A stretch of 32,000 nt of DNA, from the NCBI GenBank assembly GCA_039920285.1, contig JBDSDX010000001.1, forward strand, positions 570,001-602,000, given 5' to 3'. Each line of letters opens with the position of its first letter. Within the stretch, counting starts at the first letter, position 1. This document shows, in pieces, positions 1 through 27,890 of the stretch. Source of the DNA: Candidatus Saccharimonadota bacterium. Lineage in GTDB: Bacteria > Patescibacteriota > Saccharimonadia > Saccharimonadales > Saccharimonadaceae. The position numbers and the translations under genes were made by a program. A model generated the notes under the pieces. It did not search any database and had not been told where the DNA came from. It saw only the letters and a list, made by a program, of their open reading frames with translations.

Positions 1-270
1 GATCAACTCTATTTCACACAAACTACTGGCTCAACTCGTAAAAAGGTTGCTATCTACGACGATACGTCAGGCGCAACTGGTGATTTATACTATCGTGATG
101 CGAGTGGCTACTTCAAACGACTTCCAATCGGGACGAGCAGTCAAATTTTGACAGCAAACGCCGGTCTTCCCACATGGCAATCTGCGAGTGGCGTCATCAA
201 CAATATGGATGGTGGTGCGGCATCGGCTATATATGGTGGAGCTATCGCCGTAAACGGAGGAGGTGCCTAG
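1..270 (+). CDS. partial CDS (3' end), phage tail-fibre/collar-like fragment
   Basis: Frame 1 is open from the window edge to TAG 268-270. The translation ...GDLYYRDASGYFKRLPIGTSSQILTANAGLPTWQSASG... resembles a motif I associate with phage tail/collar proteins. Recognised by eye only. Confidence 0.45.
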   Translation, partial: DQLYFTQTTGSTRKKVAIYDDTSGATGDLYYRDASGYFKRLPIGTSSQILTANAGLPTWQSASGVINNMDGGAASAIYGGAIAVNGGGA

Positions 271-271
271 T

Positions 272-1270
272 ATGAGTACCTTGATTCAGTTTAGGCGTGA
301 TACCCAAGCAAACTGGGCAAGTGTGAACCCAATACTCGCACAAGGTGAATTAGGTCTCGTCACTGACACGGGCGCATACAAAATGGGTGACGGCACCAAC
401 GCATGGAACACATTACCGTACCATGAGATCACTCCCGCAGTTCAGACACTGACATTCTCAAATCAAGTTGACCCTTCAACACCCGCGGCCGGCACAACTG
501 TTTTATATTCACGAACGGTTGCCGGAAGATCTTTCCCTAAATACATTGGTCCATCAGGTCTGAACAGCCCTTTGCAACCAGCTATTTTCCAAAACTCACT
601 CTGGCTGGTTCAACCGAATACAACATCATCCGTTTCTGCAATTGGTGGCGCAGTGGCGTCGGCAGGTACGCTATCAACTCCAACCCCAAACTCAACCTCA
701 TTTGGCGTTTCGACGAACTTCTTAAGTGGTGCGGTCGCGAATAACACGGCTGGAACAAGCCAGAACATTGCACCCCTCAATACCTCATCGGGCGTCGCCA
801 GCAATGGTGGTTTCTTTTTTGTCTGCCGTCTTTGGTACCCTGATGCGAACTACGGCTCAGGCTCAACAGGCTCACGTCATTTTATCGGCTTATCAGACCA
901 AACCTTCACCGCAACTGTCACCTCTGATAACCCTGCTGGATCAAGAATGGGCTTTGCAATGAGCACCAACCTTGGCGAAACAACCTTCCAATTTTCGACA
1001 AAAAATGGAACTGCAGAAACACGAACCGATACAGGAGTTTCGTTAGTATCAAATAATCTTTATGACTTTTATATATTTCTTCCTGCTGGTGGCACAACCG
1101 TATCGTGGAGAATCGATAATTTATCGACTAGCACCATAACTGAAGGTGACACGACAAGTACCATCCCTGGCACCAGTACCTATCTACGTGCAGGTTTTCA
1201 ATTGGCAACGCTCACAACCGTCGCGAGAAACGTCAGAATGAAGAAAATCTACGTCGAAACGGATAATTAG
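272..1270 (+). CDS. phage tail-fibre-like protein (HylP/Mtd-type N-terminal motif, unknown C-terminal domain)
   Basis: ATG 272 lies 8 nt after GGAGGAGG; the track ORF begins at GTG 263. The N-terminus IQFRRDTQANWASVNPILAQGELGLVTDTGAYKMGDGTNAWNTLPY matches the conserved N-terminal motif of phage hyaluronidase/tail-fibre proteins. The rest is Ser/Thr/Gly-rich. Confidence 0.65.
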   Translation: MSTLIQFRRDTQANWASVNPILAQGELGLVTDTGAYKMGDGTNAWNTLPYHEITPAVQTLTFSNQVDPSTPAAGTTVLYSRTVAGRSFPKYIGPSGLNSPLQPAIFQNSLWLVQPNTTSSVSAIGGAVASAGTLSTPTPNSTSFGVSTNFLSGAVANNTAGTSQNIAPLNTSSGVASNGGFFFVCRLWYPDANYGSGSTGSRHFIGLSDQTFTATVTSDNPAGSRMGFAMSTNLGETTFQFSTKNGTAETRTDTGVSLVSNNLYDFYIFLPAGGTTVSWRIDNLSTSTITEGDTTSTIPGTSTYLRAGFQLATLTTVARNVRMKKIYVETDN

Positions 1271-13730: not shown

Positions 13731-14156
13731 ATGGCAAAGAAAATTATTGGAAATCTAAAACTTCGTATTCCAGCTGGTCGCGCGACTGCAGGTCCTCCTG
13801 TTGGTTCAACGCTCGGTCAATGGGGTCTGAATATGATGGATTTCATCAACCCGTTCAACGATGCAACCAAAGATATGATGGGTAAAGATGTCATCGTCCA
13901 CATTCAAGTGTACGAAGACCGAACTTTTACATGGAACTCACTGGGTCAACCAGTTGACGACATGATCCGTGAAGCAGTGGGTATCAAAAAGGGAAGCGCG
14001 AAATCTCACACCGACAAAGTTGGTAAGATTACTCGTGCACAACTTGAAGTTATCGCTGAAGCGAAAAAAGACCAACTCAATGCCATCGACATGGATGGTC
14101 GTGTCAAGGTTATTGCAGGCACCGCACGCTCAATGGGCGTCGACGTCGTCGCATAA
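13731..14156 (+). CDS. rplK: 50S ribosomal protein L11
   Basis: Matches L11 over its full length (LRIPAGRATAGPPVGSTLGQWGLNMMDF...). Confidence 0.95.
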   Translation: MAKKIIGNLKLRIPAGRATAGPPVGSTLGQWGLNMMDFINPFNDATKDMMGKDVIVHIQVYEDRTFTWNSLGQPVDDMIREAVGIKKGSAKSHTDKVGKITRAQLEVIAEAKKDQLNAIDMDGRVKVIAGTARSMGVDVVA

Positions 14157-14175
14157 CGATATTCCTATCTTAAAG

Positions 14176-14203
14176 AGCCGCACTTTCGGGTGCGGTTTTT
14201 TGT
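14176..14203 (+). terminator. intrinsic terminator after rplK
   Basis: Stem CCGCAC / GTGCGG with loop TTTCGG, followed by TTTTTT. Confidence 0.8.
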
Positions 14204-14263
14204 TGCTTTTCACTGAAGAAAAGCTTATGTTAAAAGGAGTTATTGAATAGTGAGGGGAGTCTC

Positions 14264-16051
14264 ATGCACGCCAACGAATTACACGATCAGGAACCAATAG
14301 AAGAACTGCCGACTATTGAGGAGCCAGGGTCTCCCGAAGATACTGGAGTGCAACCCGAGCAACAAACTCATGTGCCAAAAAAGAAAAAACATACCAAATT
14401 AATTGTATTGATTATCACTCTCATTATTCTGCTAGCTGGAGCTGGTGTTGCAGGGTGGTGGTTTTTCCTTAGGCAAAAACCAGTCACAGATACGACCCAA
14501 ACCTCTTCAAATACGACGAAACCTATTCCCGTTTCTGATGCAATTGCTCGATTTACCACACCAACAACTGGAGAAACATGGCTCAAGGCACCATTACCAA
14601 TCACAGATCTTGGCTATATTGCTGATGCTGATGCATCCAATGGTATTGAAGTAAAATACTACGAAGTCGGTAAACACGGTGAAAATAAGATCATTATGGC
14701 GACAGAATCGAGTATTGGTCAATATATCGAGCTGTTTGAACAAGGGCCAAACGGTGAAGCACATGTCATTACACGCCCAAACGCAAACGTTGACTACACG
14801 TTAAATAATAATGACCCCGTAAAAAGCTACGAAGGTACTGGCCACTGGGCATACAACATCATAATTGACAGTACAACACACTATGATTCACTAAGTATTC
14901 CTCTCTCCATCCAACTCAACACAACTGATGCTCTCGCACCTTCAACTTATAACTCACTTGGGTACCTTACGAACACCGATTCCGACACAACGACTCGAAC
15001 AGTTGTCAAAAAGTACGGTGGTTCGACTCTTGTTAAACTTCAACGAGCCTACGTTGATACCAAATTAACTGCGGTCAACTACGCACTGGAGCTTCCGACA
15101 GGAACAACCGTGTATCTTACGTACACACCAATCCCAGAAAAGATCGATGCCTATACATGGACAGATGGCAAGACTCGAAGTGGCACCATTAGCGGTGTCA
15201 TCCGTGGATGTGGCGCAGTCGGCTCATCAGTCAGCCGACTCGACGGCGCAACCGATGCCGACTTTGTCGCAGTCGCTAAAACGGCGGATAATCGCACTGT
15301 CTACGGTTTCAAAAACGACACTCATCCGCTCTTGAAAGTTGATTATGATGAATACATTCAGTCGTTAAGCTATCAAGATAATGCAACACCTCTTCCATTT
15401 GATGGCTACATGGCTGATCATGCAATGCTGGCATATAAGAATGGTTCAAATGAATGGCTCATCTATAGCCAAGACAAATATGCCCTCGTTGGTGGCTGCG
15501 GTAAACCAGTCGTGTACCTTTACCCGACAACAACAACCAGTGTAAACGTCAAAGTTGGCGCCAACGTGACTGTTTCAGAGCCTTTCTACAACCCTGCAAC
15601 AGGTTGGAAGAACGTTACCGCAACTCCAAGTGGCCAATTGAGCTACCAAGGAAAAAGTTACGACTCACTCTTCTGGGAAGGGACGGGATTTGGTTCATAT
15701 CCAGGTATCACCAGCGGAACGGTTGTCGCTCATGCGCAGGTTGATGCAACAATTCGTTCACAATTAACGGCTCAGGGACTTAATGCAAAAGAAACAAACG
15801 ACTTTATGGAATTCTGGGCATCGCGTATTCCGAATACCTCATATGTACGTTTGTCTTGGTTTAGCACTAAAGATCTCAATATTTTAGCTCCTCTGACTAT
15901 TAATCCAGCGCCTCAAACACTTATCCGTGTCTTCCTTGATATGCAAGGACTCGATGCATCGATCCCTATACCAAGCCAGCACTTCACAACCCCTGCTCGT
16001 AACGGCTTTACTGTTGTCGAATGGGGTGGCCTCCTGAGTGGTATCAAGTAG
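14264..16051 (+). CDS. single-pass membrane protein with large extracytoplasmic domain, unknown function
   Basis: ATG 14264 after GAGGGGAG; the track start is TTG 14243. Acidic N-terminus, KKKKHTK followed by TM helix LIVLIITLIILLAGAGVAGWWFF, then about 520 aa outside the membrane. Confidence 0.6.
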   Translation: MHANELHDQEPIEELPTIEEPGSPEDTGVQPEQQTHVPKKKKHTKLIVLIITLIILLAGAGVAGWWFFLRQKPVTDTTQTSSNTTKPIPVSDAIARFTTPTTGETWLKAPLPITDLGYIADADASNGIEVKYYEVGKHGENKIIMATESSIGQYIELFEQGPNGEAHVITRPNANVDYTLNNNDPVKSYEGTGHWAYNIIIDSTTHYDSLSIPLSIQLNTTDALAPSTYNSLGYLTNTDSDTTTRTVVKKYGGSTLVKLQRAYVDTKLTAVNYALELPTGTTVYLTYTPIPEKIDAYTWTDGKTRSGTISGVIRGCGAVGSSVSRLDGATDADFVAVAKTADNRTVYGFKNDTHPLLKVDYDEYIQSLSYQDNATPLPFDGYMADHAMLAYKNGSNEWLIYSQDKYALVGGCGKPVVYLYPTTTTSVNVKVGANVTVSEPFYNPATGWKNVTATPSGQLSYQGKSYDSLFWEGTGFGSYPGITSGTVVAHAQVDATIRSQLTAQGLNAKETNDFMEFWASRIPNTSYVRLSWFSTKDLNILAPLTINPAPQTLIRVFLDMQGLDASIPIPSQHFTTPARNGFTVVEWGGLLSGIK

Positions 16052-16060
16052 TCCTAACCC

Positions 16061-16089
16061 TTGGCGATAATCTCTATTTGTGCTATAAT
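16061..16089 (+). promoter_or_regulatory. dedicated promoter for rplA
   Basis: TTGGCG, 17-nt spacer, TATAAT with the extended TGC, followed by a ~75-nt leader. Confidence 0.55.
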
Positions 16090-16168
16090 AGATATATAAC
16101 AATCAATGTTGGGAGGTCTTCAAGTTATTACTTGGGCCGCTTGCACCACAGAAAGGGTTTATACCTAC

Positions 16169-17179
16169 ATGGCAAAAAAAGCTGACCTGCTTGCACAGGC
16201 AAAAGAACTTGGTCTTACATTGACCGACAAGAATACTATCGCTGAAATCGAAACAGCAATTGCTGGCGTTTCAAACGCTCCAGTTGTTGAAGTTGTCGAA
16301 ATCATTGAGACTGAAGAAATCGTTGCTGACGAGAAAGTTGCCAAAGCCGGCAAACGAAGCGCAAAAGCGATTGCTGAAGTTGAAGCAAAAGAAGACAAAG
16401 AAGCGCGCAAAGAAGCAGGTGACACCACTCCTGTTGATGGCGACGCTCCTGTCGTAAAGCGTGGCGCCCGTCCCGTTACTCGTCCACTTATCGAACGACG
16501 TGGCAAAAACTACCGTAAAGTTGCCGAACAAGTCGAAAAAGACACTGTCTACACTCTTGCCGATGCGATTGAACTTGCAAGCAAGACGAATCCTTCAAAG
16601 TTTGACGCCAGTGTTGAGTTTCACGTTCGCTTGAACGTTGACCCTCGCCAAGCTGACCAAAATATTCGTACAACTGTTTCATTGCCAAACGGTACCGGTA
16701 AGAAAATTACTGTTGCTGTCTTCGCTCCTGAAGCAGATCACAAAGCAGCCAGCGCTGCTGGTGCTGACATCGTCGGTGACGAGACATTCCTCGCTCAACT
16801 CGACAAAGAAACGATCAACTTTGACGTTTTGATTGCCACACCACAATACATGCCTCGTCTTGGTAAATATGCACGTCTCCTCGGTCCACGTGGCCTCATG
16901 CCAAACCCAAAGAGCGGTTCTGTTGCAACTGACGTCGCGAAAGCCGTAACTGAAGCAAAAGCTGGTAAAGTTGAATACCGTGTCGACAAGCAAGCCATTG
17001 TTCACTTGAGCATCGGTAAAGTAAGCTTCGGTGCGGCAAAACTTCTCGAAAACGCACAAAGCTTCTTCGACAGCCTCAACAGCCAAAAGCCAACCACCAT
17101 TAAGGGAAGCTTCGTTAAGTCAATTAGCGTTAGCACCACTATGGGTCCTGGTATCAAGGTTGAGAACTTTATCAACTAA
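16169..17179 (+). CDS. rplA: 50S ribosomal protein L1 with ~110-aa N-terminal extension
   Basis: The canonical L1 sequence starts near residue 111 (RGKNYRKVAEQVEKDTVYTLADAIELA...FDASVEFHVRLNVDPRQADQNIR). The ORF continues upstream to ATG 16169 with no internal start codon. Confidence 0.9.
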   Translation: MAKKADLLAQAKELGLTLTDKNTIAEIETAIAGVSNAPVVEVVEIIETEEIVADEKVAKAGKRSAKAIAEVEAKEDKEARKEAGDTTPVDGDAPVVKRGARPVTRPLIERRGKNYRKVAEQVEKDTVYTLADAIELASKTNPSKFDASVEFHVRLNVDPRQADQNIRTTVSLPNGTGKKITVAVFAPEADHKAASAAGADIVGDETFLAQLDKETINFDVLIATPQYMPRLGKYARLLGPRGLMPNPKSGSVATDVAKAVTEAKAGKVEYRVDKQAIVHLSIGKVSFGAAKLLENAQSFFDSLNSQKPTTIKGSFVKSISVSTTMGPGIKVENFIN

Positions 17180-20334: not shown

Positions 20335-21011
20335 TGGGAGTCTTTATCGCCATTGAAGGTGGAGACGGTTCAGGCAAAGCAACCCAAACAAAAATTCTGG
20401 CAGAATACGCCGAAAAAATTCTCAAAAAAAATGTCTTTACGATTGCATTCCCACAACATGGTGAATTCTCGTCGTATTACGCCGACCAGTACTTGAACGG
20501 TGCCTATGGTGGCGTCAACGACGTTCATGCTGACCTCGCCAGTCTTCCATATGCGATCGATCGCTTTGCGGCCAGTCCGAAAATTCGAGCTGTCCTCGAT
20601 GACCCAAACGGGTTAGTTATTGCCGATCGTTACGTTGCCTCAAATCTCGCTCACCAAGGCTCAAAACTCGGCGACGACAAAGAACGTCACGACTACTACG
20701 ACCGTATGATGCAAACAGAGTTTGAGGTCCTTGGTATTCCGAAGCCCGATCTCAATATCATATTATTAGTACCGTCGACTATTTCTCAAGAAAATATTGA
20801 TAAAAAAGAAACTCGTGCCTACACAACGATGAAGCGTGATATTCACGAACAAGACGCAGGGCACCTTGACCGCACTAAAGCAAATTACGAAGAACTCACT
20901 GAGATCTACCCAGAATGGTTCCGTGCGATTGATTGTATGAACAACACAGGTACAATGCGTTCGATCGAGGATATCCAAGATGATATCCGGACACTTCTTA
21001 CGGCCGTTTAA
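20334..21011 (+). CDS. tmk: thymidylate kinase
   Basis: FIAIEGGDGSGKATQ P-loop and ADRYVASNLAHQ motif. The start overlaps the dcd stop (TAATG). Confidence 0.9.
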   Translation: MGVFIAIEGGDGSGKATQTKILAEYAEKILKKNVFTIAFPQHGEFSSYYADQYLNGAYGGVNDVHADLASLPYAIDRFAASPKIRAVLDDPNGLVIADRYVASNLAHQGSKLGDDKERHDYYDRMMQTEFEVLGIPKPDLNIILLVPSTISQENIDKKETRAYTTMKRDIHEQDAGHLDRTKANYEELTEIYPEWFRAIDCMNNTGTMRSIEDIQDDIRTLLTAV

Positions 21012-22206
21012 TAACCTTACTCAATAAACGACGAAGTGGTGATTTTTTTTTATTATGACCATACCCCATTTTGTCGAGTATTGCTTGGACATCATCAGGA
21101 TGGAGTTTGTCAGGGTTAAGCATCGCATTAGCGACTTGGTTGTGCATCGAGAGATCACTAAGTAGCGCAGGGGCCGTTTTACGCCACTCAACTTCACGCT
21201 CATGATCTTCAACTGAAAAGTAATAGTGACGAGATATACGCGGGTGAGGTTCTGTTCGTTCGGCCTCTTGCTTACGAACAAGTTCAGTCGTGGCTGGATT
21301 GTACGCATAAATAGTTGTCGAGAGTGAGATAGCGTTCTTCTGTTTCTTTGAGCTAGCCAACGTACTGATGAACGTTTCGAATGGTAATAGGGCAGCTTCT
21401 TGCTCATCGCTTTCAAGCAATTGAATGGCTCGCATCTCTGCAACGCCTTTATCGCCGAATTGTGTATAGAAGCGACTTTTTGCATCCATGCGAAGTACGA
21501 ACGATGATCGCTCACGAACGCTCGAGCCGTCAGGCAATGATGCAATCGTTCTTTTACGCGTCATCAAAACGCCAGCCGGATTCTTCGGATCGTCATTACT
21601 CTGAGTCAGTCCATCTTCACCGACCGATTCTTTAATACGGAATCGTGTCTCTGGCGTACCGTGCATTTCTCCTCCTACGAGACGAACTGCGTAAGCGACT
21701 GCTTTGTGCATTTCGGCAAGTGATTCTTCATGCTCCCCGTAAGGATGTGTCAGACAGGCAAGTTCAGCGCTTCGAATACCAAGTAAATCTCGTATAAGAA
21801 TGAGTTCCGCTGGAGAAGCAAGCCCCAGACGACCACGCTCGACCATGATTTGTATCTTTGGTTCAAGAATAGGAATAATATCCAAGCGAAGTGCAGTCAT
21901 GAAGTTATCATCATTTGCCTGACTACGGCTATCGAACCGAACATCAAAGGTATCACGGATAAAATTTGCAATGCTGAGCGGCGTATCATGCGGGATAGAC
22001 ATCGTAAGCATTCGTAAGCTTCCCTGAACATGCTTCTGATCACTGCGTGTCAGATGGCGGTCAAGCGGCGTCGCTCCGTAACTCAGAGCGTCACCGCGGG
22101 GAGCAATTTCAGAAAGCACCATAAGGTCAGTATCAAGCTGAAAGTATGGGCTTTGATTAACATGAGGGTGCTCAAAGTCAGCCTCGGTATGTACGGGACC
22201 TGTCAT
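20998..22206 (-). CDS. hypothetical protein (402 aa)
   Basis: Long ORF with no recognisable motif. No SD; a promoter lies directly upstream. The 3' end overlaps tmk convergently by 14 nt. Confidence 0.55.
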   Translation of the reverse strand: MTGPVHTEADFEHPHVNQSPYFQLDTDLMVLSEIAPRGDALSYGATPLDRHLTRSDQKHVQGSLRMLTMSIPHDTPLSIANFIRDTFDVRFDSRSQANDDNFMTALRLDIIPILEPKIQIMVERGRLGLASPAELILIRDLLGIRSAELACLTHPYGEHEESLAEMHKAVAYAVRLVGGEMHGTPETRFRIKESVGEDGLTQSNDDPKNPAGVLMTRKRTIASLPDGSSVRERSSFVLRMDAKSRFYTQFGDKGVAEMRAIQLLESDEQEAALLPFETFISTLASSKKQKNAISLSTTIYAYNPATTELVRKQEAERTEPHPRISRHYYFSVEDHEREVEWRKTAPALLSDLSMHNQVANAMLNPDKLHPDDVQAILDKMGYGHNKKKSPLRRLLSKVIKRP

Positions 22207-22215
22207 ATTAATAAT

Positions 22216-22244
22216 ATTATACCACTCTTAAAGATTAATATCAA
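22216..22244 (-). promoter_or_regulatory. promoter abutting the 402-aa ORF start
   Basis: On the minus strand: TTGATA, 17-nt spacer, TGG-TATAAT. Only 9 nt separate the -10 from the ATG. Confidence 0.5.
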
Positions 22245-22339
22245 GGAGTCAACAGAGGTGAAATAAGCCTTGGCGGATTGCCAAGGGTAGTGGTGGGGTA
22301 GTCTAACCAACCCACCACCGCTAGTGTCCACAGGGGTTA

Positions 22340-22368
22340 TTGACTTATCGACGTAATTTTTATATACT
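22340..22368 (+). promoter_or_regulatory. rplJL promoter
   Basis: TTGACT (22340-22345), 17-nt spacer, TATACT (22363-22368). Confidence 0.6.
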
Positions 22369-22374
22369 ACCGGT

Positions 22375-22556
22375 TAGACATCCCAAAGACAGTAGCAGTG
22401 GAAACACTTAATTTGCTACCGAGGTAAATGTAAAACATACATTTTTTCAGTCTTTGGCAGTGCGAGAACCAAAGACTTTTTGTTTTCTCTAAAGGAACTG
22501 CCTGTCTAGCAAGTCTTAACAATTTGGCCGAATGAATAATAACCAAGGAGATTTTT
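22375..22556 (+). promoter_or_regulatory. ribosomal protein L10 leader (autoregulatory attenuator type)
   Basis: ~180-nt structured leader upstream of rplJ. Inner stem GTAGC...GCTAC, and two copies of CCAAAGAC (22383 and 22470) that compete for GTCTTTGG (22450). Confidence 0.55.
22449..22486 (+). terminator. leader terminator (attenuator) upstream of rplJ
   Basis: 9-bp stem AGTCTTTGG / CCAAAGACT with an 11-nt loop, followed by TTTTTGTTTT. Confidence 0.7.
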
Positions 22557-23081
22557 ATGGCAATTACCCGCGATAAAAAGAACGAATTGGTTGCTGAAAT
22601 GGGCGAACTGTTTACAAATGCGAAAGCAACTGTTTTTGCTCAGTACAACGGTTTAAGTGTTGCGGATGTCCAAAAACTCCGCGCACAAGCTCGCGAAGCT
22701 GGCGTGGTCATTAGGGTTGTTAAAAACCGTCTTGTCCGCGTTGCTCTCGGTGAAGTCGAGGCATATAAAAACACTGATGTGTCCGGTCTGACTGGTCAAC
22801 TTCTCTACGCGATTAGCGCTGATGATGAAGTTGCACCTGCGAAGATTCTGAACACATTTGCAAAAAGTAATGACGCGCTTGTCATTGCTGGTGGATTTTC
22901 AAATGTTGGTGCTCTTTTGAGTGCTGATGATGTGAACTCTCTCGCTAGCTTGCCAAGTAAGAACCAACTTATTGGCGAAGTCATTGCGCAACTGCTTTCA
23001 CCAGTTCACGATATTACCAATGCACTTCAGGGCAACCTGCATGCGCTTTTGGATGGTATCGAAGCTAAAGCAACCAGTTAA
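22557..23081 (+). CDS. rplJ: 50S ribosomal protein L10
   Basis: AAGGAG RBS. Matches L10 over its full length. Confidence 0.95.
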   Translation: MAITRDKKNELVAEMGELFTNAKATVFAQYNGLSVADVQKLRAQAREAGVVIRVVKNRLVRVALGEVEAYKNTDVSGLTGQLLYAISADDEVAPAKILNTFAKSNDALVIAGGFSNVGALLSADDVNSLASLPSKNQLIGEVIAQLLSPVHDITNALQGNLHALLDGIEAKATS

Positions 23082-23127
23082 TAATTGAATCAACACTACA
23101 TTAAACGAATTTTAAAGGAGTCACACT

Positions 23128-23502
23128 ATGGCTGATTTGAAAAAACTCGCAGAAAGCCTCGTTGGCTTAACTGTACTTGAGGTCAACGACCTTAAGACCA
23201 TTTTGAAAGAAGAATACGGTATCGAGCCAGCTGCTGCAGCTGTCGCTGTTGCCGGACCTGCTGCAGAAGCAGCACCTGCTGAAGAAGCAAAATCTGACTA
23301 CACTATCGTCCTTAAGGACGCTGGTAGCCAAAAAGTAGCAGTCATCAAGGCTGTTAAAGACATCACTGGCCTCGGCTTGGGTGAAGCAAAAGCAATCGTT
23401 GACGGTGCACCTGCTACCGTTAAAGAAAAAGCTCCTAAAGAAGAAGCTGAAGCTGCGAAGAAAACCCTCGAAGAAGCTGGCGCAACCGTCGAGCTCAACT
23501 AA
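23128..23502 (+). CDS. rplL: 50S ribosomal protein L7/L12
   Basis: N-terminal dimerisation helix, Ala/Pro/Glu hinge, and C-terminal domain [27 protein letters not shown]. Confidence 0.95.
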
Positions 23503-23530
23503 TCATCATTCGGCCATTGTTGAGTCTTTA

Positions 23531-23563
23531 AATACCGTCTCTTACTGGGACGGTATTTTCTTT
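23531..23563 (+). terminator. intrinsic terminator after rplL
   Basis: Stem AATACCGTC / GACGGTATT with a 9-nt loop, then a T-rich tract. Confidence 0.8.
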
Positions 23564-23622
23564 GGCAAAATATACAACATTTTTTCACATACCTCTGATT
23601 TGGGTGTGGAAAACACCTCATA

Positions 23623-23651
23623 TTGACATTTAGCGTAGGCATTGTTATATA
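23623..23651 (+). promoter_or_regulatory. promoter of the 172-aa ORF
   Basis: TTGACA, 17-nt spacer, TATATA. Confidence 0.55.
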
Positions 23652-23701
23652 TAAGGTAATACCATTTCAAAAATACACAGATAAGGAAATTGCGAGTAAC
23701 C

Positions 23702-24220
23702 ATGTCTGACCTCCCTGAGAAGCAAGTCAAACGACTTCATTCATTGATTCAAGAAGCAGAAACAAACCTAGCAGCAGCCAAAGAACTGCTGATTAGCATT
23801 ATTGGTGATGACGGTACCGTTATCACCCCGAGAAGCGGCACAAACGAAGAAGTCAGCGGCAAAGTCGTTGAGGGTGTCTTCGATGGTCAAAAAATGGCCG
23901 GTCCTGACGGTAAAGAATACCCAGTTCCCGCAAACTACGCCAGTAAATCAAAGCTCGTCGAAGGGGATATCCTCAAACTTACCATTGCTGATGACGGCAG
24001 CTTTATCTACAAACAAATCGGTCCGACTGAACGAACACAGATCATTGGAACACTCGTCCAGCATGACGGTGCATACTACGTTGAAGCGAACGGTCGTGAG
24101 TACCGCATTCTTCTGGCAAGTGTGACCTATTTCCGCATCAATGTTGGCGACCAAGTCACCATCATTATCCCAACTGATAGCCCCGACGCACTGTGGGCAG
24201 CAGTCGAAGCTTCTCTCTAG
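23702..24220 (+). CDS. hypothetical protein (N-terminal helix plus beta-rich C-terminal domain)
   Basis: ATG 23702; the track start is TTG 23690. No recognisable domain. Confidence 0.55.
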   Translation: MSDLPEKQVKRLHSLIQEAETNLAAAKELLISIIGDDGTVITPRSGTNEEVSGKVVEGVFDGQKMAGPDGKEYPVPANYASKSKLVEGDILKLTIADDGSFIYKQIGPTERTQIIGTLVQHDGAYYVEANGREYRILLASVTYFRINVGDQVTIIIPTDSPDALWAAVEASL

Positions 24221-24227
24221 CTTGAAA

Positions 24228-24256
24228 TTGACTTTTATCCATTAAAGTGATATAAT
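24228..24256 (+). promoter_or_regulatory. cassette A promoter
   Basis: GAAATTGACTT...17-nt spacer...TATAAT, near consensus. Confidence 0.65.
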
Positions 24257-24331
24257 TCACCTCAGTTTTTTGCGTTTGCAATCAGCTAGTCCTGTTACAA
24301 CTCGCTCTACATGAAGGCTGGGGAAATAATC

Positions 24332-24934
24332 ATGCTTACGACATACCCGTTGTTGCTCGACATCGTCAATAACGACCACACGAGCATCAACGCGCTTAAC
24401 CGCCACGGGGTCTTTCACACGATCGCGCTGACCATGATGAGCCATCAGGAATTGATGGCGATCTACGGCCTCGGCCGACGTCGTATCGAACGCATCGAGA
24501 CAAACCTTCACACTGCCGGACTTCGGTTGCGTGATTTCTCGGAGCGTAAACTCGTGTTTCTCGACGGGCAACTGCCCGTGACGGAAGCATCCCATGCTGA
24601 GCTGCTCCACGTCTGGGTCAACTGGAAAAACCCTCAGCGCGAGGAAGGAGTACGCTACGAACCAAGTGCTGTCGCGACCGTGCTCTGCGAGAAGCAGGGG
24701 CTGACGACAGTCGGCGAGGTGTTGAGTGTTTCTTTCTGCGAAGTCACCGCTTTGCTCTTTGAGCTCAGTGGTGACGAGTGGGTGAGACTCTCTCGCTACA
24801 GCAAGTCGTTCACACAGCTCGATGACCGAGAACCGGTGATTGAACTGATGCTGACGCGACACCTCTCTCGCATCCAGCGGTGGGATCTCGACATTCCCGT
24901 TGTCATCAACGAGTCGGCCCTCATCAAGAGCTGA
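24332..24934 (+). CDS. cassette A: HhH protein, RpoA alpha-CTD-like layout
   Basis: ATG 24332 follows GGGGAAA, the SD form used by several host genes; an in-frame ATG at 24311 has no SD. G/C-rich third codon positions mark the + frame as coding. Contains TSINALNRHGVFHTIALTMMSHQELMAIYGLGRRRIERIETNLHTAGLRL. Confidence 0.6.
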   Translation: MLTTYPLLLDIVNNDHTSINALNRHGVFHTIALTMMSHQELMAIYGLGRRRIERIETNLHTAGLRLRDFSERKLVFLDGQLPVTEASHAELLHVWVNWKNPQREEGVRYEPSAVATVLCEKQGLTTVGEVLSVSFCEVTALLFELSGDEWVRLSRYSKSFTQLDDREPVIELMLTRHLSRIQRWDLDIPVVINESALIKS

Positions 24935-24945
24935 GATACAGGACA

Positions 24946-24974
24946 GCCGACCCCGCTCACAAGGCGGGATCGGC
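24946..24974 (+). other. GC-rich hairpin 3' of cassette A ORF
   Basis: GCCGA-C-CCCGC, loop TCACAAG, GCGGG-A-TCGGC: 10 bp with one C/A mismatch. Confidence 0.6.
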
Positions 24975-25015
24975 ATCGTCCCTATGAACAGGTCAATGAC
25001 GTGTTTTTAGAGACT
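24975..25015 (+). repeat. conserved 3' tail, copy A
   Basis: ATCGTCCCTATGAACAGGTCAATGACGTGTTTTTAGAGACT. 35 of 43 aligned columns are identical to copy B. Confidence 0.8.
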
Positions 25016-25033
25016 ATAACCCTTTTAGATGAA

Positions 25034-25062
25034 TTGACTTAGTTTTTTAAAAATGCTATAAT
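25034..25062 (+). promoter_or_regulatory. cassette B promoter
   Basis: GAATTGACTT...17-nt spacer...TATAAT, near consensus and similar to the cassette A promoter. Confidence 0.65.
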
Positions 25063-25137
25063 AGTTGGACTTAATCCCCAAGTATGGGGTGCGAGAGCCC
25101 CTGTACATTCCATGTTCCAATCCACCTGAAGGTACAA

Positions 25138-25641
25138 ATGAAAACCATGACTATGACACTTGATACTGTGTTCGAAGACAGCCCGCTGTCACTCAACATC
25201 ATCAAGAAGCGTCTCAAGGTTACTACGCTGGAAGAGCTGATGCTCTACACACCGATGATGATCATGAACACCTCGGGAGTTGGCAGCCCTATCGCTGCCT
25301 ACATCCGCGGTCGCTTCACGGAGCTCAACTGGGCACACCATGCCCACTTGCGTCTCCGCGACAACACCGAGTCCGTCCTGGACTTTATCGACACGATGTA
25401 CCACGCGCTGATCAATGCACCCCTAGTGGTGCTGAACTTCAGCCTGGACCACACCGGTTCGATCATTCACAAGCCGCTGGAGCTGGTCCAGATGTTCCTT
25501 GAGGTTAAGCCAGATGCCGTCGTACTCGATCTCGATGATCTTGACGACTTCCTCACGGCTAGCAACTGCCCGAAGAGCTTCATCACCGATCTCTCCAAGC
25601 GGATGATCGAGTGGAAGCTCCAGGGTCCCAGCGCAGGCTGA
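25138..25641 (+). CDS. cassette B: divergent paralogue of the cassette A HhH protein
   Basis: ATG 25138 after GAAGGT; the track start is 25084. Contains LEELMLYTPMMIMNTSGVGSPIAAYIRGRF and shares the ...LRLRD... block with protein A. G/C-rich third codon positions. Confidence 0.55.
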   Translation: MKTMTMTLDTVFEDSPLSLNIIKKRLKVTTLEELMLYTPMMIMNTSGVGSPIAAYIRGRFTELNWAHHAHLRLRDNTESVLDFIDTMYHALINAPLVVLNFSLDHTGSIIHKPLELVQMFLEVKPDAVVLDLDDLDDFLTASNCPKSFITDLSKRMIEWKLQGPSAG

Positions 25642-25663
25642 GTAGGAACATGGCACAGGGCAG

Positions 25664-25694
25664 GTCGATCCGCTTCTTCGTGAGGTGGATCGAC
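25664..25694 (+). other. GC-rich hairpin 3' of cassette B ORF
   Basis: GTCGATCCGC pairs with GTGGATCGAC (10 bp including one G-U). Its sequence is unrelated to hairpin A but it sits at the same position. Confidence 0.6.
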
Positions 25695-25737
25695 ATAGTC
25701 CCCAACAACAGGTCAAACAGACGTGTTTTTAGAGACT
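25695..25737 (+). repeat. conserved 3' tail, copy B
   Basis: ATAGTCCCCAACAACAGGTCAAACAGACGTGTTTTTAGAGACT. Confidence 0.8.
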
Positions 25738-25740
25738 TTA

Positions 25741-25769
25741 TTGCAAAACGGCTGCATAAGCACTATAGT
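25741..25769 (+). promoter_or_regulatory. tdk promoter
   Basis: TTGCAA, 17-nt spacer, TATAGT, starting 4 nt after repeat copy B. Confidence 0.5.
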
Positions 25770-25830
25770 GAGTTCATCACTGAGGTGAAAACAAAAAGGG
25801 TGTGAACAATACAGAATATGGGGGAAATAG

Positions 25831-26445
25831 GTGTCGAAACTTCATTTTAAGTACGGGGCGATGAATAGCGGTAAAAGCGATACGCTTATTAAAACTGCCT
25901 ACAATTATTTAGAGCGTGGCCTTTCAATCGTTGTTTTGAAACCGAGTGTTGATACAAAAGGTGATACACAGATCATTGCTCGTGGTGGCGCTCAGCGCAC
26001 GGTTGATATCCTCGCGACACCCGACCTTGATCTCCGCATAGCAGTAAAGAAGTTCGCCAAAGACAATGCCATTACCCATCTCTCATGCATCCTTATCGAC
26101 GAGGCTCAATTTTTGACTCCTGATCAGATCGATCAGTTATTTTCGATTGCTAAAGAAGACCAGACATCTGTTATAGCCTATGGACTCAGAGCTGATTTCC
26201 AAACAAAACTCTTTCCTGGGAGCAAGCGCCTTATTGAACTTGCGGACAATATCGAAAAACTCCCAACGATGTGTCGTTGTGGCAACCAAGCCGAGTTTAA
26301 CTGTCGCAAGGTAAACGACCAGTATATATTCGAAGGAGAACAAGTCGCAATTGATGGTGAAGGGAGCGTGACGTACGACTCGCTCTGCGGAACATGTTAT
26401 TTAACAGAGAAGGCGCTCGCAGCGTCCAAAAACACAACGAAATAG
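25831..26445 (+). CDS. tdk: thymidine kinase
   Basis: GTG start after GGGGGAAA. GAMNSGKS P-loop, IDEAQF motif and C-terminal zinc-ribbon cysteines (CRCG...CGTC). Confidence 0.9.
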   Translation: MSKLHFKYGAMNSGKSDTLIKTAYNYLERGLSIVVLKPSVDTKGDTQIIARGGAQRTVDILATPDLDLRIAVKKFAKDNAITHLSCILIDEAQFLTPDQIDQLFSIAKEDQTSVIAYGLRADFQTKLFPGSKRLIELADNIEKLPTMCRCGNQAEFNCRKVNDQYIFEGEQVAIDGEGSVTYDSLCGTCYLTEKALAASKNTTK

Positions 26446-26489
26446 ACCAGCCCGAACGGGTATACTAAAACAAACAAAGGGGAAGCAAC

Positions 26490-27890
26490 GTGGCACAAGC
26501 ACTGTATCGAAAATATCGGAGCAAATCATTGGCGGAAATCGTTGGCCAATCACATATTACTGATATTCTCAGCCGAGCAATTAAAGCTGGGCGTATTTCG
26601 CATGCCTATCTCCTAACTGGACCTCGTGGTGTTGGTAAAACATCGGTTGCTCGTATCTTGGCGCACGAGATTAACCAATTACCGTACAGTGATGACTCGA
26701 CTCACTTAGATATCATCGAAATTGATGCCGCCAGCAACAATGGTGTTGAGGATGTCCGTGATCTCCGCGAAAAGGTACAAATTGCACCAGTCTCTGCAGC
26801 CAAGAAAGTCTACATTATCGATGAAGTCCATATGCTTTCAAAAGCTGCCTTTAATGCACTTCTTAAAACCCTCGAAGAGCCGCCTGAACACGTTGTTTTT
26901 ATCCTTGCGACAACTGATGTCGACAAACTTCCTGCAACAATCATCAGTCGAACTCAGCGCTACAGTTTCCGTGCTATTAGCGAACCCGATGCTATCACAC
27001 ATCTTCGTTTTATCGCTGATGAAGAAAAGATAAAAATTGACGACGAATCTTTAGCAATTATTGCGACTCGTGGTGATGGAAGTTTCCGTGACAGCATTAG
27101 CTTACTCGATCAAATAGCGAGCCTCGCCGACGAAAAGACTGGTATCACCGCAGATCTCGTCACCAATACTCTCGGTCTTGCACCGCTGACGGTCGTCGCC
27201 GACCTGCTTGCAGCCGTGGAGACTCATGACGTCACAAGAATCGCACAACTCTTACGTGATACAGAAGCCGATGGCATTAGCCCCGCCACGTTAACGCAAC
27301 AACTCACACTGAAGCTTCGTGAACTAATATCTGAAAAACCTCAATTCCTTCCCTTGTTCGACGGTCTACTCGACGTTGCTCGATCAAGCCAACCCTCTCT
27401 GAAACTTTTGAGTACACTCGGCACTGCTGCTTTAGAGAACAAACCCACCAAAACAGCAGCTCTCGCAACTCCTGTCCTCGAAATCACGGCCACCATCGAA
27501 GAACTCTCGAAACAAGCCACGCGCATCAAGCCATCGCTAAAAGTTGAGCCAATAAGTGAAGGGCCCCTGAAAAAGAGAAGTGCTTCACTTGCGGTCTTCG
27601 ACTCAACCGAGCTGATTACATACACAAAAAAGAACTACGTTGCCCTCTATAGCGTCCTCGTTAAGTGTACCTTTGAACTCAATGGCAGTGATTTAACCCT
27701 ATATACCGTCAACACTTTTTACAAAAAGAAGCTTGATGACCTTAAATACAGTTCACACCTTTACGAGTCACTCAAAGCGCTTGGTTATGAACTCACTATC
27801 CACACAATTCCCACAACTAAACCTCCCCAAGATAGCCAGGCTGCTGCTATAGCTGTTATTATGGGCGGAGGAGAAGAGGTCGCGATTTAA
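26490..27890 (+). CDS. dnaX: DNA polymerase III subunit gamma/tau
   Basis: GTG start after AAGGGGAA. GPRGVGKTS Walker A, IIDEVHML Walker B, and SRTQRY sensor motif. Confidence 0.9.
   Translation: MAQALYRKYRSKSLAEIVGQSHITDILSRAIKAGRISHAYLLTGPRGVGKTSVARILAHEINQLPYSDDSTHLDIIEIDAASNNGVEDVRDLREKVQIAPVSAAKKVYIIDEVHMLSKAAFNALLKTLEEPPEHVVFILATTDVDKLPATIISRTQRYSFRAISEPDAITHLRFIADEEKIKIDDESLAIIATRGDGSFRDSISLLDQIASLADEKTGITADLVTNTLGLAPLTVVADLLAAVETHDVTRIAQLLRDTEADGISPATLTQQLTLKLRELISEKPQFLPLFDGLLDVARSSQPSLKLLSTLGTAALENKPTKTAALATPVLEITATIEELSKQATRIKPSLKVEPISEGPLKKRSASLAVFDSTELITYTKKNYVALYSVLVKCTFELNGSDLTLYTVNTFYKKKLDDLKYSSHLYESLKALGYELTIHTIPTTKPPQDSQAAAIAVIMGGGEEVAI

Follow-up and report, generated by a model that had tools for sequence, protein, structure and literature searches.

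A Saccharimonadaceae hot spot carries two paralogous gene units that probably encode stand-alone α-CTD-like proteins on predicted closed-loop mRNAs

Introduction

The genomes of Saccharibacteria and other CPR bacteria are tiny, and most of the accessory genes in them lack annotation. Among described accessory units, phage morons carry their own promoter, ORF, and terminator between conserved genes and have a composition unlike that of their neighbors. The C-terminal domain of the RNA polymerase α subunit (α-CTD) contacts DNA in Escherichia coli through residues R265, N268, G296, K298, and S299. Pairing between the 5' and 3' regions of a bacterial mRNA is known from hok, where it leads to fold-back inhibition. 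In the icaR mRNA of Staphylococcus aureus, the leader forms a helix with the region just past the stop codon, which closes the mRNA near its translation signals, and cleavage by RNase III accompanies this 5'-3' UTR pairing (PMC3868564).

We analyzed a 32,000-nucleotide stretch of a Saccharimonadaceae genome (the window), in which two tandem units, A and B, follow a gene for a 172-aa protein (p172). Like morons, they are autonomous promoter-ORF-terminator units of deviant GC content that are present or absent between syntenic genes, and, as in icaR, their mRNAs are predicted to be closed by a helix between the two untranslated regions. A literature search found no paper on stand-alone α-CTD-like proteins or on this locus. 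Our results favor the view that A and B are members of a lineage-specific, fast-evolving accessory family occupying a hot spot downstream of the 172-aa gene; they are probably self-contained units with a closed-loop mRNA and α-CTD-like products.

Results

Gene order and the variable site downstream of p172

All relatives examined had the gene order rplJ-rplL-(172-aa gene)-(tdk)-dnaX-dnaB; in this lineage, the usual successor of rplL is the 172-aa gene, followed by tdk or dnaX. A sequence-only reading of this DNA had placed the two units in the position where rpoBC normally follows rplL. It was right that neither gene is found in the 32-kb window, but rpoBC has not been displaced, and the cassettes are inserted between the 172-aa gene and tdk. 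The neighbors of units A and B (rplJ, rplL, tdk, dnaX, and dnaB) are cellular core genes. More than 8000 homologs of p172 were found, the top matches being 86–95% identical and all of the Saccharimonadaceae type, and Pfam searches gave only weak MazE/AbrB and RuvA_N hints for this protein.

In about 80 related loci, a variable gap of 62 to 3355 bp lies directly downstream of p172, and the number of cassettes per relative locus is 0, 1, or 2. In L072 and L073, an IS-like ORF is present in the same gap. The same reading had proposed comparing the rplL-tdk junction across relatives; its content proved variable, and the codon usage of the cassettes was not host-like but GC3-rich (see below). Close relatives could in principle gain and lose cassettes rapidly, but this explanation was dropped, the related loci being only 77–81% identical in their flanking genes; at this distance, the differences in content may reflect rapid in-place divergence or cassette replacement.

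Architecture of units A and B

Two consecutive, independent, and similarly built units had been described, and all of their features were located at the positions given (Table 1). The two promoters are the best + strand matches between positions 22000 and 27000, with 11/12 matching positions each, and a promoter of the A type recurs at the homologous place in six related loci (L003, L040, L054, L067, L092, and L014). No terminator was found in the interval from the p172 stop (24220) to promoter A (24228). The transcription start sites, the 3' ends, and all RNA structures of A and B are predictions; on this basis, the leader measures about 69 nt in both units. Counterparts of the 5'-terminal hairpin with another sequence (TTTTTG..CAAAA) occur in L092, L035, and L059.

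The stretch taken for a conserved tail in each unit is indeed conserved, with 72% identity between A (24967–25013) and B (25687–25733) and an exact common 16-mer, ACGTGTTTTTAGAGAC. It is, however, not a loose stretch but a second, imperfect hairpin, H2. A covariance model of the tail matched unit A at 24967–25020 (52.9 bits) and unit B at 25687–25742 (60.7 bits).

Table 1. Features of the p172-tdk interval, in positions of the window; P1, helix predicted between the leader and the region past the stop codon; H1 and H2, 3' hairpins.
Feature	Position	Strand	Evidence
p172, conserved 172-aa gene; left edge of the hot spot	23702..24220	+	Homolog search and position
Promoter A, TTGACT-17-TATAAT, TG before the -10 (extended -10)	24228..24256	+	Promoter scan
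Predicted 5'-terminal hairpin of mRNA A, core TTGC..GCAA	24264..24287	+	MFE and centroid structures
P1 5' arm of A, GTCCTGT, within the conserved leader motif GTCCTGTTAC	24289..24295	+	Predicted pairing, covariation
ORF A, 200 aa, NCBI ABIP50_03220, hypothetical protein	24332..24934	+	ORF list
P1 3' arm of A, ACAGGAC, 4 nt past the stop codon	24938..24944	+	Predicted pairing, covariation
Hairpin H1 of A, GCCGACCCCGC..GCGGGATCGGC, 11 bp, -20.8 kcal/mol	24946..24974	+	Folding
Hairpin H2 of A, terminator-like, T-rich 3' arm	24978..25014	+	RNAalifold, covariance model
Promoter B, TTGACT-17 nt-TATAAT, TG before the -10	25034..25062	+	Promoter scan
Predicted 5'-terminal hairpin of mRNA B	25070..25095	+	Folding
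P1 5' arm region of B, GCCCcTGT ... CCATGTTCC	25097..25118	+	Predicted pairing
ORF B, 167 aa, NCBI ABIP50_03225 (annotated from a later Met, 162 aa)	25138..25641	+	ORF list
P1 3' arm region of B, GGAACATGG c ACAGGGC, 4 nt past the stop codon	25645..25661	+	Predicted pairing
Hairpin H1 of B, 13 bp, -23.0 kcal/mol	25664..25694	+	Inverted repeat, folding
Hairpin H2 of B, previously described as the tail	25697..25737	+	RNAalifold, covariance model
Promoter-like site of tdk, TTGCAA-17 nt-TATAGT; right edge of the hot spot	25741..25769	+	Promoter scan; kept directly after H2 in other loci

A divergent protein family

That A and B are divergent paralogs was confirmed by hhalign (A family versus B family, 99.3%, E 8e-21 over 150 columns), as was their shared block (HTAGLRLRDFSERKLVFLD versus HHAHLRLRDNTESVLDFID; 11/19 identical, E 0.002). 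F2 cassette ORFs aligned with B at 96.4% and with A at 95.1%, whereas the cassette ORFs of L003, L056, F3, and L012 showed no link to the A/B/F2 superfamily (hhalign ≤ 36%) and no Pfam domain. Relatives were found by exhaustive HMMER searching and by mining of the hot spot. Among 1.84 billion representative proteins, HMMER found P0123 and P0135 as the sole full-length relatives of A, both of which are encoded immediately after this 172-aa gene in the genomes of other Saccharibacteria; the relatives of B also lie at this hot-spot site. In a word-indexed search of 5.8 billion proteins, A and B matched themselves only. No stretch of the family alignment is conserved, and PADLOC defense models gave no significant match for A, B, p172, or the L003 cassette protein. 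Each subfamily has its own relatives in other genomes, and the pair may have arisen either through tandem duplication long ago or through the joining of two subfamily members.

Protein A is predicted to consist of an N-terminal α-CTD-like domain with helix-hairpin-helix (HhH) motifs (approximately residues 5–69) and a helical C-terminal half. The earlier assignment of both proteins as HhH or α-CTD-like was supported for the N-terminal domain by the family profile and Foldseek, but protein A alone stays below the Pfam threshold, scoring 17.1 bits against PF03118 (cut-off 23.8; E 0.0045), and B was unmatched. Six of 16 family members matched PF03118 (best E 1.2e-6), and the 16-sequence family profile matched about 50 RpoA α-CTD structures, the best being 1z3e_B (E 1.3e-9). 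In addition, residues 17–69 of A matched proteins with multiple PF03118 repeats (E 5e-14 to 1e-4).

An AF2 model of A built from a four-sequence alignment placed helices at residues 8–11, 16–24, 30–34, 38–43, and 49–61 with moderate confidence (pLDDT 60–84) and is confident only in the N-terminal third, and no fold was assigned to the C-terminal half; the single-sequence model reached a pLDDT of 36. In the model, A shows a five-helix fold with two HhH motifs. The top Foldseek matches for this domain were all α-CTDs (probability 0.99–1.0; TM-score normalized to the target 0.58–0.76; rmsd 1.5 Å over 51 residues to 1z3e_B). Taken from profiles and models, these data indicate that the N-terminal five-helix domain of the A/B family resembles the α-CTD. 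It occurs at the N terminus of stand-alone proteins of 167–200 aa that have no match to the α-NTD, and thus not in the C-terminal position that it takes in RpoA. By alignment, the equivalents of N268 and G296 are kept, and that of R265 is not conserved (T in A); the second hairpin glycine is followed by RRR in A but by SPI in B, where the basic residues are missing. Hence, DNA binding in the style of the α-CTD is doubtful.

Composition and coding frame

Sliding-window analysis bore out the raised G+C content of both ORFs. GC content rises to 0.55–0.58 inside ORFs A and B (300-nt windows) compared with about 0.45 for the window, and GC3 is 0.71 in A and 0.76 in B compared with 0.34–0.51 for the window's 16 confidently coding genes. 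GC3 exceeded that of both neighbors in 23/23 cassettes examined, unrelated ORF families included (mean 0.70 versus 0.47), whereas the promoters, leaders, and tails within the hot spot are AT-rich. The + frame had also been read correctly as the coding frame: the GC1 > GC2 << GC3 periodicity fits the + strand, and Shine-Dalgarno-like sequences lie at the right distance. Codon changes between L054 and L055 comprised 14 synonymous and 3 nonsynonymous ones. Long ORFs are also carried by the antisense strand.

Predicted RNA architecture

Helix P1 is predicted to pair a segment of the 5' UTR, 25–55 nt before the start codon, with a segment 0–15 nt past the stop codon. In a 758-nt transcript, the P1 arms of A paired with a probability of 0.91–1.0; in B, positions 25110–25118 paired with 25645–25653 (0.99–1.0) and 25097–25104 with 25655–25661. 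Across 17 cassettes, P1 positions 1–8 were paired in 13–17, and 3–5 pair types occurred at positions 6–9. Permuted partners reached the observed count in 0/5000 trials, with segments curated by eye around conserved GYCC/GGRC cores, a choice that favors pairing. Partition functions of full transcripts gave P1 a probability of about 1.0 in 8/8 cases, and end-to-end pairs with p > 0.9 numbered 6–19 in 11/11 cassette transcripts compared with 1/10 control genes. Applied to single cassettes, RNAduplex and ungapped-helix searches gave noisy results on 5'-3' pairing (p about 0.0–0.7); the signal is clear only by position-anchored comparison across cassettes and in full-transcript partition functions.

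The P1 3' arm abuts H1, which brings the stacked base pairs to about 20, and in several cassettes this arm contains the stop codon, so terminating ribosomes must open P1. H1 was present in 17/17 cassettes of the type to which unit A belongs (9–14 bp), and 11/14 pairs of H2 showed compensatory changes in RNAalifold. The tail model matched cassette 3' ends only in the window plus 600 kb of related loci (630 kb searched). When the tail motif was sought in 596 Gb of genomes, a collection that evidently lacks the window's own genome, one match in a TM6 genome had no hairpin context and was judged to be due to chance. Rfam 15 gave chance-level matches only on 24150–25850 (E > 3), and the only gathering-level match in the window was the L10 leader.

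Whole transcripts folded with z-scores of -7.8 (A) and -7.3 (B) compared with -1.8 for the neighboring gene. The coding sequences (CDSs) were more structured than their synonymous shuffles (z -3.8 for A and -4.1 for B), and in 17 other cassettes the mean z was -3.1 compared with -1.3 and -0.8 for the neighbors (p 4.6e-5); this excess is moderate, given that rplJ reached z -3.7 and L059 and L028 showed none. The fold potential of B was similar on the antisense strand, and unit B may form hairpins at the DNA level.

Discussion

The composition of the two ORFs had been attributed to recent acquisition from GC-rich Actinobacteria or their phages, with GC3 as a donor codon signature. The difference in GC3 and the self-only matches in the word-indexed search would suit such an origin, but a GC content of 55–56% is well under that of typical actinobacterial genes. 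All full-length relatives of A in the exhaustive HMMER search come from this locus in Saccharibacteria, no actinobacterial relatives were found, and no phage relatives were found in PHROGs, by tblastn against 50,697 phage records, or in three IMG/VR scans. Cultivated Saccharibacteria do live as epibionts of Actinobacteria (PMC10633639); nevertheless, GC3 is high in all 23 hot-spot cassettes examined, from many genomes, including unrelated ORFs with the same UTR architecture, which, together with the excess RNA structure, argues against a donor signature and makes this origin very unlikely. Alternatively, high GC3 could have arisen without selection for RNA structure, as a side effect of GC-biased gene conversion or of frequent recombination where strains exchange the hot spot by natural transformation. 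Natural competence and recombination of homologous DNA are documented for Saccharibacteria (PMC10633639), the content of the site is variable, the enrichment is common to unrelated ORFs, and tails within one genome (A/B; L040a/L040b) are more alike than the CDSs, which suggests conversion. Yet the AT-rich promoters, leaders, and tails belong to the same hot spot, and the synonymous codon arrangement gives more structure than shuffles of identical GC3; composition alone is therefore an insufficient explanation, and we regard this account as unlikely. That the GC-rich segments are structured noncoding RNAs with accidental ORFs would agree with the whole-transcript z-scores of -7 to -8 and the open antisense frames. 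It is extremely improbable in view of the codon periodicity in the + frame, the synonymous excess in close pairs (14:3), protein homology that is detectable where DNA is saturated, a recognizable α-CTD-like domain behind well-placed Shine-Dalgarno-like sequences, and the absence of an Rfam match.

The inverted repeats could also act at the DNA level, with GTCCTGT...ACAGGAC and the hairpins as integron-, inverton-, or MITE-like recombination or inversion sites. An ORF flanked by inverted repeats, the recurrence of the same flanks around unrelated ORF families, the varying hot-spot content with its occasional IS-like ORF, and the similar folding of B on both strands are in keeping with this proposal. 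We consider it quite unlikely, however, since a search of the 32-kb window and of ±5 kb around related loci found no integrase, invertase, transposase, or reverse transcriptase, and orientation relative to the promoter is identical in 23/23 cassettes (assemblies). Moreover, the arms are only 7–10 bp long and contain G-U pairs that are mismatches on the other strand, each unit's own promoter lies outside the repeat, and the tail motif is confined to cassette ends apart from the chance-like match. At the RNA level, P1 and H1 might be where an enzyme such as RNase III processes the transcript, freeing the cassette mRNA from p172 read-through, or might regulate translation as in icaR, instead of acting as a passive stabilizer. 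The lack of a terminator upstream of promoter A, the stacking of P1 on H1, the stop codons within the 3' arm, and the documented cleavage of icaR (PMC3868564) speak for this role, whereas P1 on its own would be a short RNase III substrate and the duplex does not continue across the junction. In F3-type cassettes, moreover, the 5' arm coincides with the predicted transcription start, a position better suited to protecting the mRNA end than to cutting the unit out, and we deem processing or regulation unlikely.

We therefore prefer to see A and B as members of a lineage-specific accessory family of self-contained units. Each would be transcribed from a strong predicted σ70-type promoter with an extended -10 into an mRNA composed, in order, of a 5'-terminal hairpin, P1 closing around the CDS, the GC-rich H1, and the terminator-like H2. 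This architecture would protect the mRNA ends and insulate the unit from the upstream gene, and raised GC3 may be kept at least partly for RNA structure and not inherited from a GC-rich donor. The proteins could be small cytoplasmic transcription modulators that bind DNA or RNA polymerase partners as α-CTD mimics or decoys, their hypervariability possibly reflecting host-specific or conflict-driven selection. A bolder proposal, which we put forward tentatively and hold to be on the unlikely side, is that the RNA platform itself (promoter, 5' hairpin, 5'-3' closing helix, structured GC3-rich CDS, and double 3' hairpin) is the selected and exchangeable unit: an "armored" closed-loop mRNA at one Saccharimonadaceae hot spot that carries diverse fast-evolving small proteins, including stand-alone α-CTD mimics hitting the RNA polymerase partners of phage, epibiont, or actinobacterial host. 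If true, the hot spot would hold a kind of bacterial gene cassette not described before, with mRNA architecture and not a recombinase as its defining feature.

The hot spot is recurrent and can be located from one conserved neighbor, the 172-aa gene. The stand-alone α-CTD-like family could modulate or mimic RNA polymerase α and provides candidates for strain- or host-specific functions, and transcripts that join a covarying closing helix between 5'UTR and 3'UTR to a CDS with excess structure make mRNA architecture testable in CPR bacteria. Caution is also advised in calling horizontal transfer, as a GC3 jump of +0.25 marks the whole cassette class here and tracks RNA structure, not a foreign donor.

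Compared with known systems, the N-terminal stretch of about 60 residues in A and its family matches the RpoA α-CTD (PF03118) by profile and predicted fold, with five short helices, two HhH turns, and the G-x-G hairpin. It differs in standing alone, untethered to an α N-terminal domain, in being followed by an unrelated helical half of about 120 residues that ends in an R-L-x-x-W-x-L motif, and in belonging to an accessory and hypervariable family, not an essential one. The multi-repeat α-CTD/HhH proteins (P0124-P0141; 3–11 PF03118 repeats, some with σ70 region 4) are the best matches to residues 17–69 of A outside the family, but they are 300–1000 aa long, have a single domain in common with A, and are not syntenic with the hot spot. 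Integron cassettes are likewise variable ORFs at one site, each followed by an imperfect inverted repeat and arranged in tandem. Here, however, there is no IntI integrase or attI, no integrase or recombinase domain appears among the scanned ORFs of the window or in the genes tabulated for related loci, and the units lack the R''/L''/L'/R' core sites; arrays comprise 1–2 units only, each A/B unit has its own 11/12 σ70-type promoter, and the 3' elements are two separate hairpins. An inverton is not indicated either, given the single orientation and the lack of an invertase. Unlike morons, A and B lie in a cellular core-gene neighborhood, not in a prophage, at one fixed site and with a conserved UTR architecture. 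In contrast to icaR and hok, P1 covaries across many cassettes with different ORFs, and further elements accompany it in the cassettes: one hairpin at the 5' end, two at the 3' end, and a GC3-rich CDS that is itself structured.

Layout and coding frame of units A and B

A sequence-only reading had described two tandem units, each with a promoter, an ORF, a GC-rich hairpin and a tail, and all of these components were located (Table). When positions 22000-27000 were scanned, the two promoters were the top two plus-strand matches of the sigma-70 type. The promoter-to-ORF distance was approximately 69-75 nt in both units, and the tails were 72% identical over 47 nt, with the exact 16-mer ACGTGTTTTTAGAGAC common to both. 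The NCBI annotation, for a 795-kb contig of a Candidatus Saccharimonadales MAG, lists A as ABIP50_03220 and B as ABIP50_03225, both as hypothetical proteins. Sequencing run SRR26386597 contains the sequence of the window.

Features of units A and B and of the surrounding genes (window coordinates)
Feature	Position	Strand	Remarks
Protein with N-terminal Mtd_N domain (major tropism determinant)	263-1267	+	335 aa; E 1.9e-13
ORF between rplK and rplA	14243-16051		602 aa; no Pfam match (region 13731-17179)
ORF between rplA and rplJ, with thyA, folA, dcd, tmk	20998-22206	-	402 aa; unknown
L10 leader, Rfam RF00557	22365-22491	+	68.3 bits; upstream of rplJ; sole gathering-level Rfam match in the window
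Promoter A	24228-24256	+	TTGACT-17-TATAAT, 11/12, TG before -10
ORF A	24332-24934	+	200 aa
GC-rich hairpin of unit A	24946-24974	+	3' of ORF A, before the tail
Promoter B	25034-25062	+	TTGACT-17-TATAAT, 11/12, TG before -10
Closing helix P1 of unit B, segment 1	25097-25104 with 25655-25661	+	
Closing helix P1 of unit B, segment 2	25110-25118 with 25645-25653	+	
ORF B	25138-25641	+	167 aa
GC-rich hairpin of unit B	25664-25694	+	3' of ORF B, before the tail

Sliding windows gave GC peaks of 0.55-0.58 within the two ORFs compared with 0.457 window-wide, and GC3 was 0.71 (A) and 0.76 (B) compared with 0.34-0.51 in 16 confidently coding window genes. GC1 (~0.55-0.60) and GC2 (~0.35-0.38) followed a coding-type pattern in the plus frame; a 239-aa antisense ORF lacked this pattern and had no Pfam match. 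Computation thus bore out both the GC and GC3 excess over neighbouring genes and the plus-strand frame that had been read by hand. Codon changes between close pairs of related loci (14 synonymous and 3 nonsynonymous for L054 and L055; 8 and 6 for L036 and L039) support protein-coding cassette ORFs, and the L036/L039 ratio suggests relaxed or fast evolution.

Position of the cassettes

The window opens with nusG, rplK, the 602-aa ORF and rplA, then thyA, folA, dcd and tmk, and continues with the 402-aa minus-strand ORF, the L10 leader, rplJ, rplL, p172 (a conserved 172-aa gene), A, B, tdk, dnaX, dnaB and a PMT_2 protein. Thousands of close homologues of p172 were found, and the order rplJ-rplL-p172-(tdk)-dnaX-dnaB was present in all relatives for which context was retrieved, so it is normal in this lineage for rplL not to be followed by rpoBC. 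The cassettes are placed between p172 and tdk, not at the rpoBC position, and the proposed displacement of rpoBC had to be dropped.

Only 8 nt, without a terminator, separate the p172 stop codon from the -35 element of promoter A downstream (24218-24233), so that transcription of p172 is expected to run on into unit A; loci with cassettes of the F3 family have a terminator hairpin overlapping the -35 instead. Elsewhere in the window, RplA (357 aa) has an N-terminal extension of ~150 residues ahead of the L1 domain. Judging from its domain, the Mtd_N protein could be targeted by a diversity-generating retroelement; the 32-kb window was found to contain no reverse transcriptase.

A variable hot spot after p172

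A metagenome scan with p172 collected 80 further loci, in which 62 to 3355 bp separated the p172 stop from tdk or dnaX, whichever conserved gene came next. The insert was absent in about half of them, and the remaining loci carried one or two small plus-strand ORFs, mostly with GC3 of 0.6-0.89. GC3 exceeded that of both neighbours in 23 of 23 delimited cassettes (mean 0.70 vs 0.47). The flanking genes of related loci, which belong to different species, were 77-81% identical to those of the window; the cassette differences may reflect rapid in-place divergence or replacement, both of which fit.

Some loci were occupied differently. At L076:4197-7553, the hot spot is filled by four tandem ORFs of ~180-210 aa, two of them mutually paralogous and two with TTGACT promoters; their GC3 is 0.46-0.51, unlike that of the GC3-rich cassettes. 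L072:5371-7130 and L073 have a 363-aa minus-strand ORF with an IS-/transposase-like layout plus a small plus-strand ORF, which fits an insertion-prone site. The most GC-rich cassette (L012:1875-2243, 67% GC, no Pfam match) has an ORF that runs off the contig end. Genomes that lack tdk (L017, L030, L035, L044 and others) keep a remnant of its promoter and leader (..ATCACGAGGGTGAAAACAAACA..) ~60-150 nt upstream of dnaX, with the conserved stretch AAAGTGTAAAAA(A/C)(T/C)ACGGCA next and then another promoter ahead of dnaX.

Families and domain of the cassette proteins

A word-indexed protein search with A and B returned self-matches only. An exhaustive HMMER search with A yielded two full-length relatives, P0123 (36% identity, E 3e-30) and P0135 (E 2.5e-5), both encoded directly 3' of a 172-aa gene in other Saccharibacteria. 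The B family comprises window B, L067, L044, L017, L030, L053 and L040 (two copies), and the other protein groups of the hot spot are F2, F3 (~100 aa), a 293-aa DUF2797 family and singletons. Proteins A and B are only ~22% identical; profile-profile comparison of their families gave 99.3% (E 8e-21, 150 columns), with B vs F2 at 96.4% and A vs F2 at 95.1%. On these alignments, A and B are remote paralogues over their whole length, and the common block noted by eye is real.

Protein A alone scored 17.1 bits against PF03118, the C-terminal domain of RNA polymerase alpha (alpha-CTD), below the 23.8-bit threshold, and E 0.0045-0.01 against RpoA chains; its residues 17-69 matched proteins of 3-11 PF03118 repeats with E 5e-14 to 1e-10. 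With a 16-member family profile, ~50 RpoA alpha-CTD structures ranked first (best E 1.3e-9, B. subtilis 1z3e_B), and 6 of the 16 members matched PF03118 individually. AF2 gave no usable model of A from the single sequence; from a four-sequence alignment, residues ~5-65 formed five short helices (pLDDT 60-84), for which the best Foldseek matches were alpha-CTD (probability 0.99-1.0, rmsd 1.5 Å over 51 residues). Profile and predicted fold agree in supporting an alpha-CTD-like HhH domain at the N-terminus, as had been proposed. The C-terminal half of A was helical in a low-confidence model and may hold a further small helical domain, to judge from weak matches of the family profile to a SAM-like domain and LigA HhH repeats. 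In the alignments, the equivalent of alpha-CTD R265 is unconserved, and a basic G-R-R-R hairpin is kept in A and absent from B.

RNA architecture of the cassettes

Promoters of the same type were found across the cassettes compared. Their leaders contain the motif GTCCTGTTAC or a variant, with its reverse complement 0-15 nt past the stop codon, so as to form a predicted closing helix between the 5' and 3' UTRs (P1). The arms covary: GTCCTGT/ACAGGAC in A, GTCCTGTGAG/CTCACAGGAC in L092, GCCCTGTT/AACAGGGC in L067, GCCCTTACT/AGTAAGGGC in L030, GTCCcTACTAC/GTAGTAcGGAC in F2 and GTTCTGT/ACAGAAC in L040a. In a position-anchored table, P1 positions 1-8 were paired in 13-17 of 17 cassettes, and 3-5 types of base pair occurred at positions 6-9. 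Permutation of partners reached the observed pairing in 0 of 5000 trials, on segments picked by eye, a choice biased toward pairing. An independent check by partition-function folding of predicted transcripts at full length (640-790 nt) put the probability of P1 at ~1.0 in 8 of 8, and 6-19 end-to-end pairs with p > 0.9 appeared in 11 of 11 cassette transcripts, four of them of the unrelated F3 type, compared with 1 of 10 controls. The sole positive control was an rplL segment with arbitrary ends (23100-23560; 12 predicted 5'-3' end pairs, p > 0.9).

Directly 3' of the P1 3' arm, a GC-rich hairpin of 9-14 bp (H1) was present in 17 of 17 cassettes. The tail, previously described as a conserved element, is indeed conserved between the units and is predicted to form a second, terminator-like hairpin (H2), with compensatory changes in 11 of 14 pairs, followed by T-rich sequence and then the next promoter. 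An H2 covariance model had no window matches beyond the tails of A and B, and its matches in 600 kb of related loci were confined to hot-spot cassette 3' ends; Rfam had no match to the cassette RNA elements. A tail-pattern scan of 596 Gb of genomes gave a single match (L002:6756-6782, TM6 genome CAMATL010000014.1), which has no hairpin context and is probably due to chance.

H2 tails within one genome (24975-25015 vs 25695-25737; L040:1761-1818 vs 2512-2566) are far closer than the coding sequences, a likeness that suggests concerted evolution or a genome-specific factor recognising tails. The F3 cassettes (L023:5520-6194, L025:5520-6687, L027, L028, L071) have a GC3 of 0.59-0.76 and encode proteins of ~100 aa that are not related to A and B; L025 has two in tandem. 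Here GTCCTGTTAC starts 6-7 nt past the -10 element, at the predicted transcription start, and CAGGAC stands immediately ahead of a canonical terminator, the same closing-helix logic around a different ORF.

The predicted transcripts run to H2 from near 24263 in A (~0.76 kb) and from near 25069 in B (~0.67 kb). Relative to dinucleotide shuffles, their folding z-scores were -7.8 (A) and -7.3 (B), compared with -1.8 for the p172 transcript. Against shuffles preserving protein and codon usage, the coding sequences scored -3.8 (A) and -4.1 (B), the lowest of 19 window genes or gene segments, with rplJ close at -3.7. In other genomes, 17 cassettes had a mean z of -3.1, compared with -1.3 for their p172 and -0.8 for the next gene (Mann-Whitney p 4.6e-5). 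Because these shuffles keep protein and codon usage, the lower scores indicate that synonymous codon placement, as modelled, favours structure.

Origin and possible role of the cassettes

The sequence-only reading held up in its paralogy and alpha-CTD-like domain and failed in rpoBC displacement and in horizontal transfer from Actinobacteria. A foreign donor had been proposed from the GC3 excess; the exhaustive HMMER search found full-length relatives of A only in other Saccharibacteria, after a 172-aa gene. Selection for RNA structure, as the folding models have it, offers a donor-free cause of the excess, short of proof. Another possible cause is that recombination at this hot spot is accompanied by biased gene conversion, an option favoured by the natural competence of Saccharibacteria (PMC10633639).

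The 5' hairpin, P1, H1 and H2 would place both mRNA ends within helices, and the paired ends may protect and insulate cassette transcripts, p172 and unit A being joined without a terminator. With its 3' arm adjoining or overlapping the stop codon, P1 would have to be opened by ribosomes at termination, a possible link between translation and stability or re-initiation. The main mechanistic rival takes P1 as a processing site or as part of icaR-like regulation (PMC3868564). Proteins A and B, in which no signal peptide was seen by eye, probably act in the cytoplasm as modulators, binding either DNA or, as mimic or decoy, a partner of RNA polymerase alpha; conflict or host specificity may underlie their variability.

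Comparison with known systems

The defining tests for integrons, invertons and known defence systems failed for units A and B, the two had no PHROG, PADLOC or phage matches, and our literature search found no paper on this locus or protein family. That the RNA platform represents a new class of cassette seems to us rather unlikely. The N-terminal domain groups with alpha-CTD-like HhH domains in fold and profile; however, it is stand-alone and not part of RpoA, and relative to PF03118, A lies below the Pfam threshold and B is absent at it. The units behave like phage morons but are located outside any phage. The 5'-3' pairing is like that of icaR and hok, whereas here it is a family-wide, covarying trait of the cassette platform.
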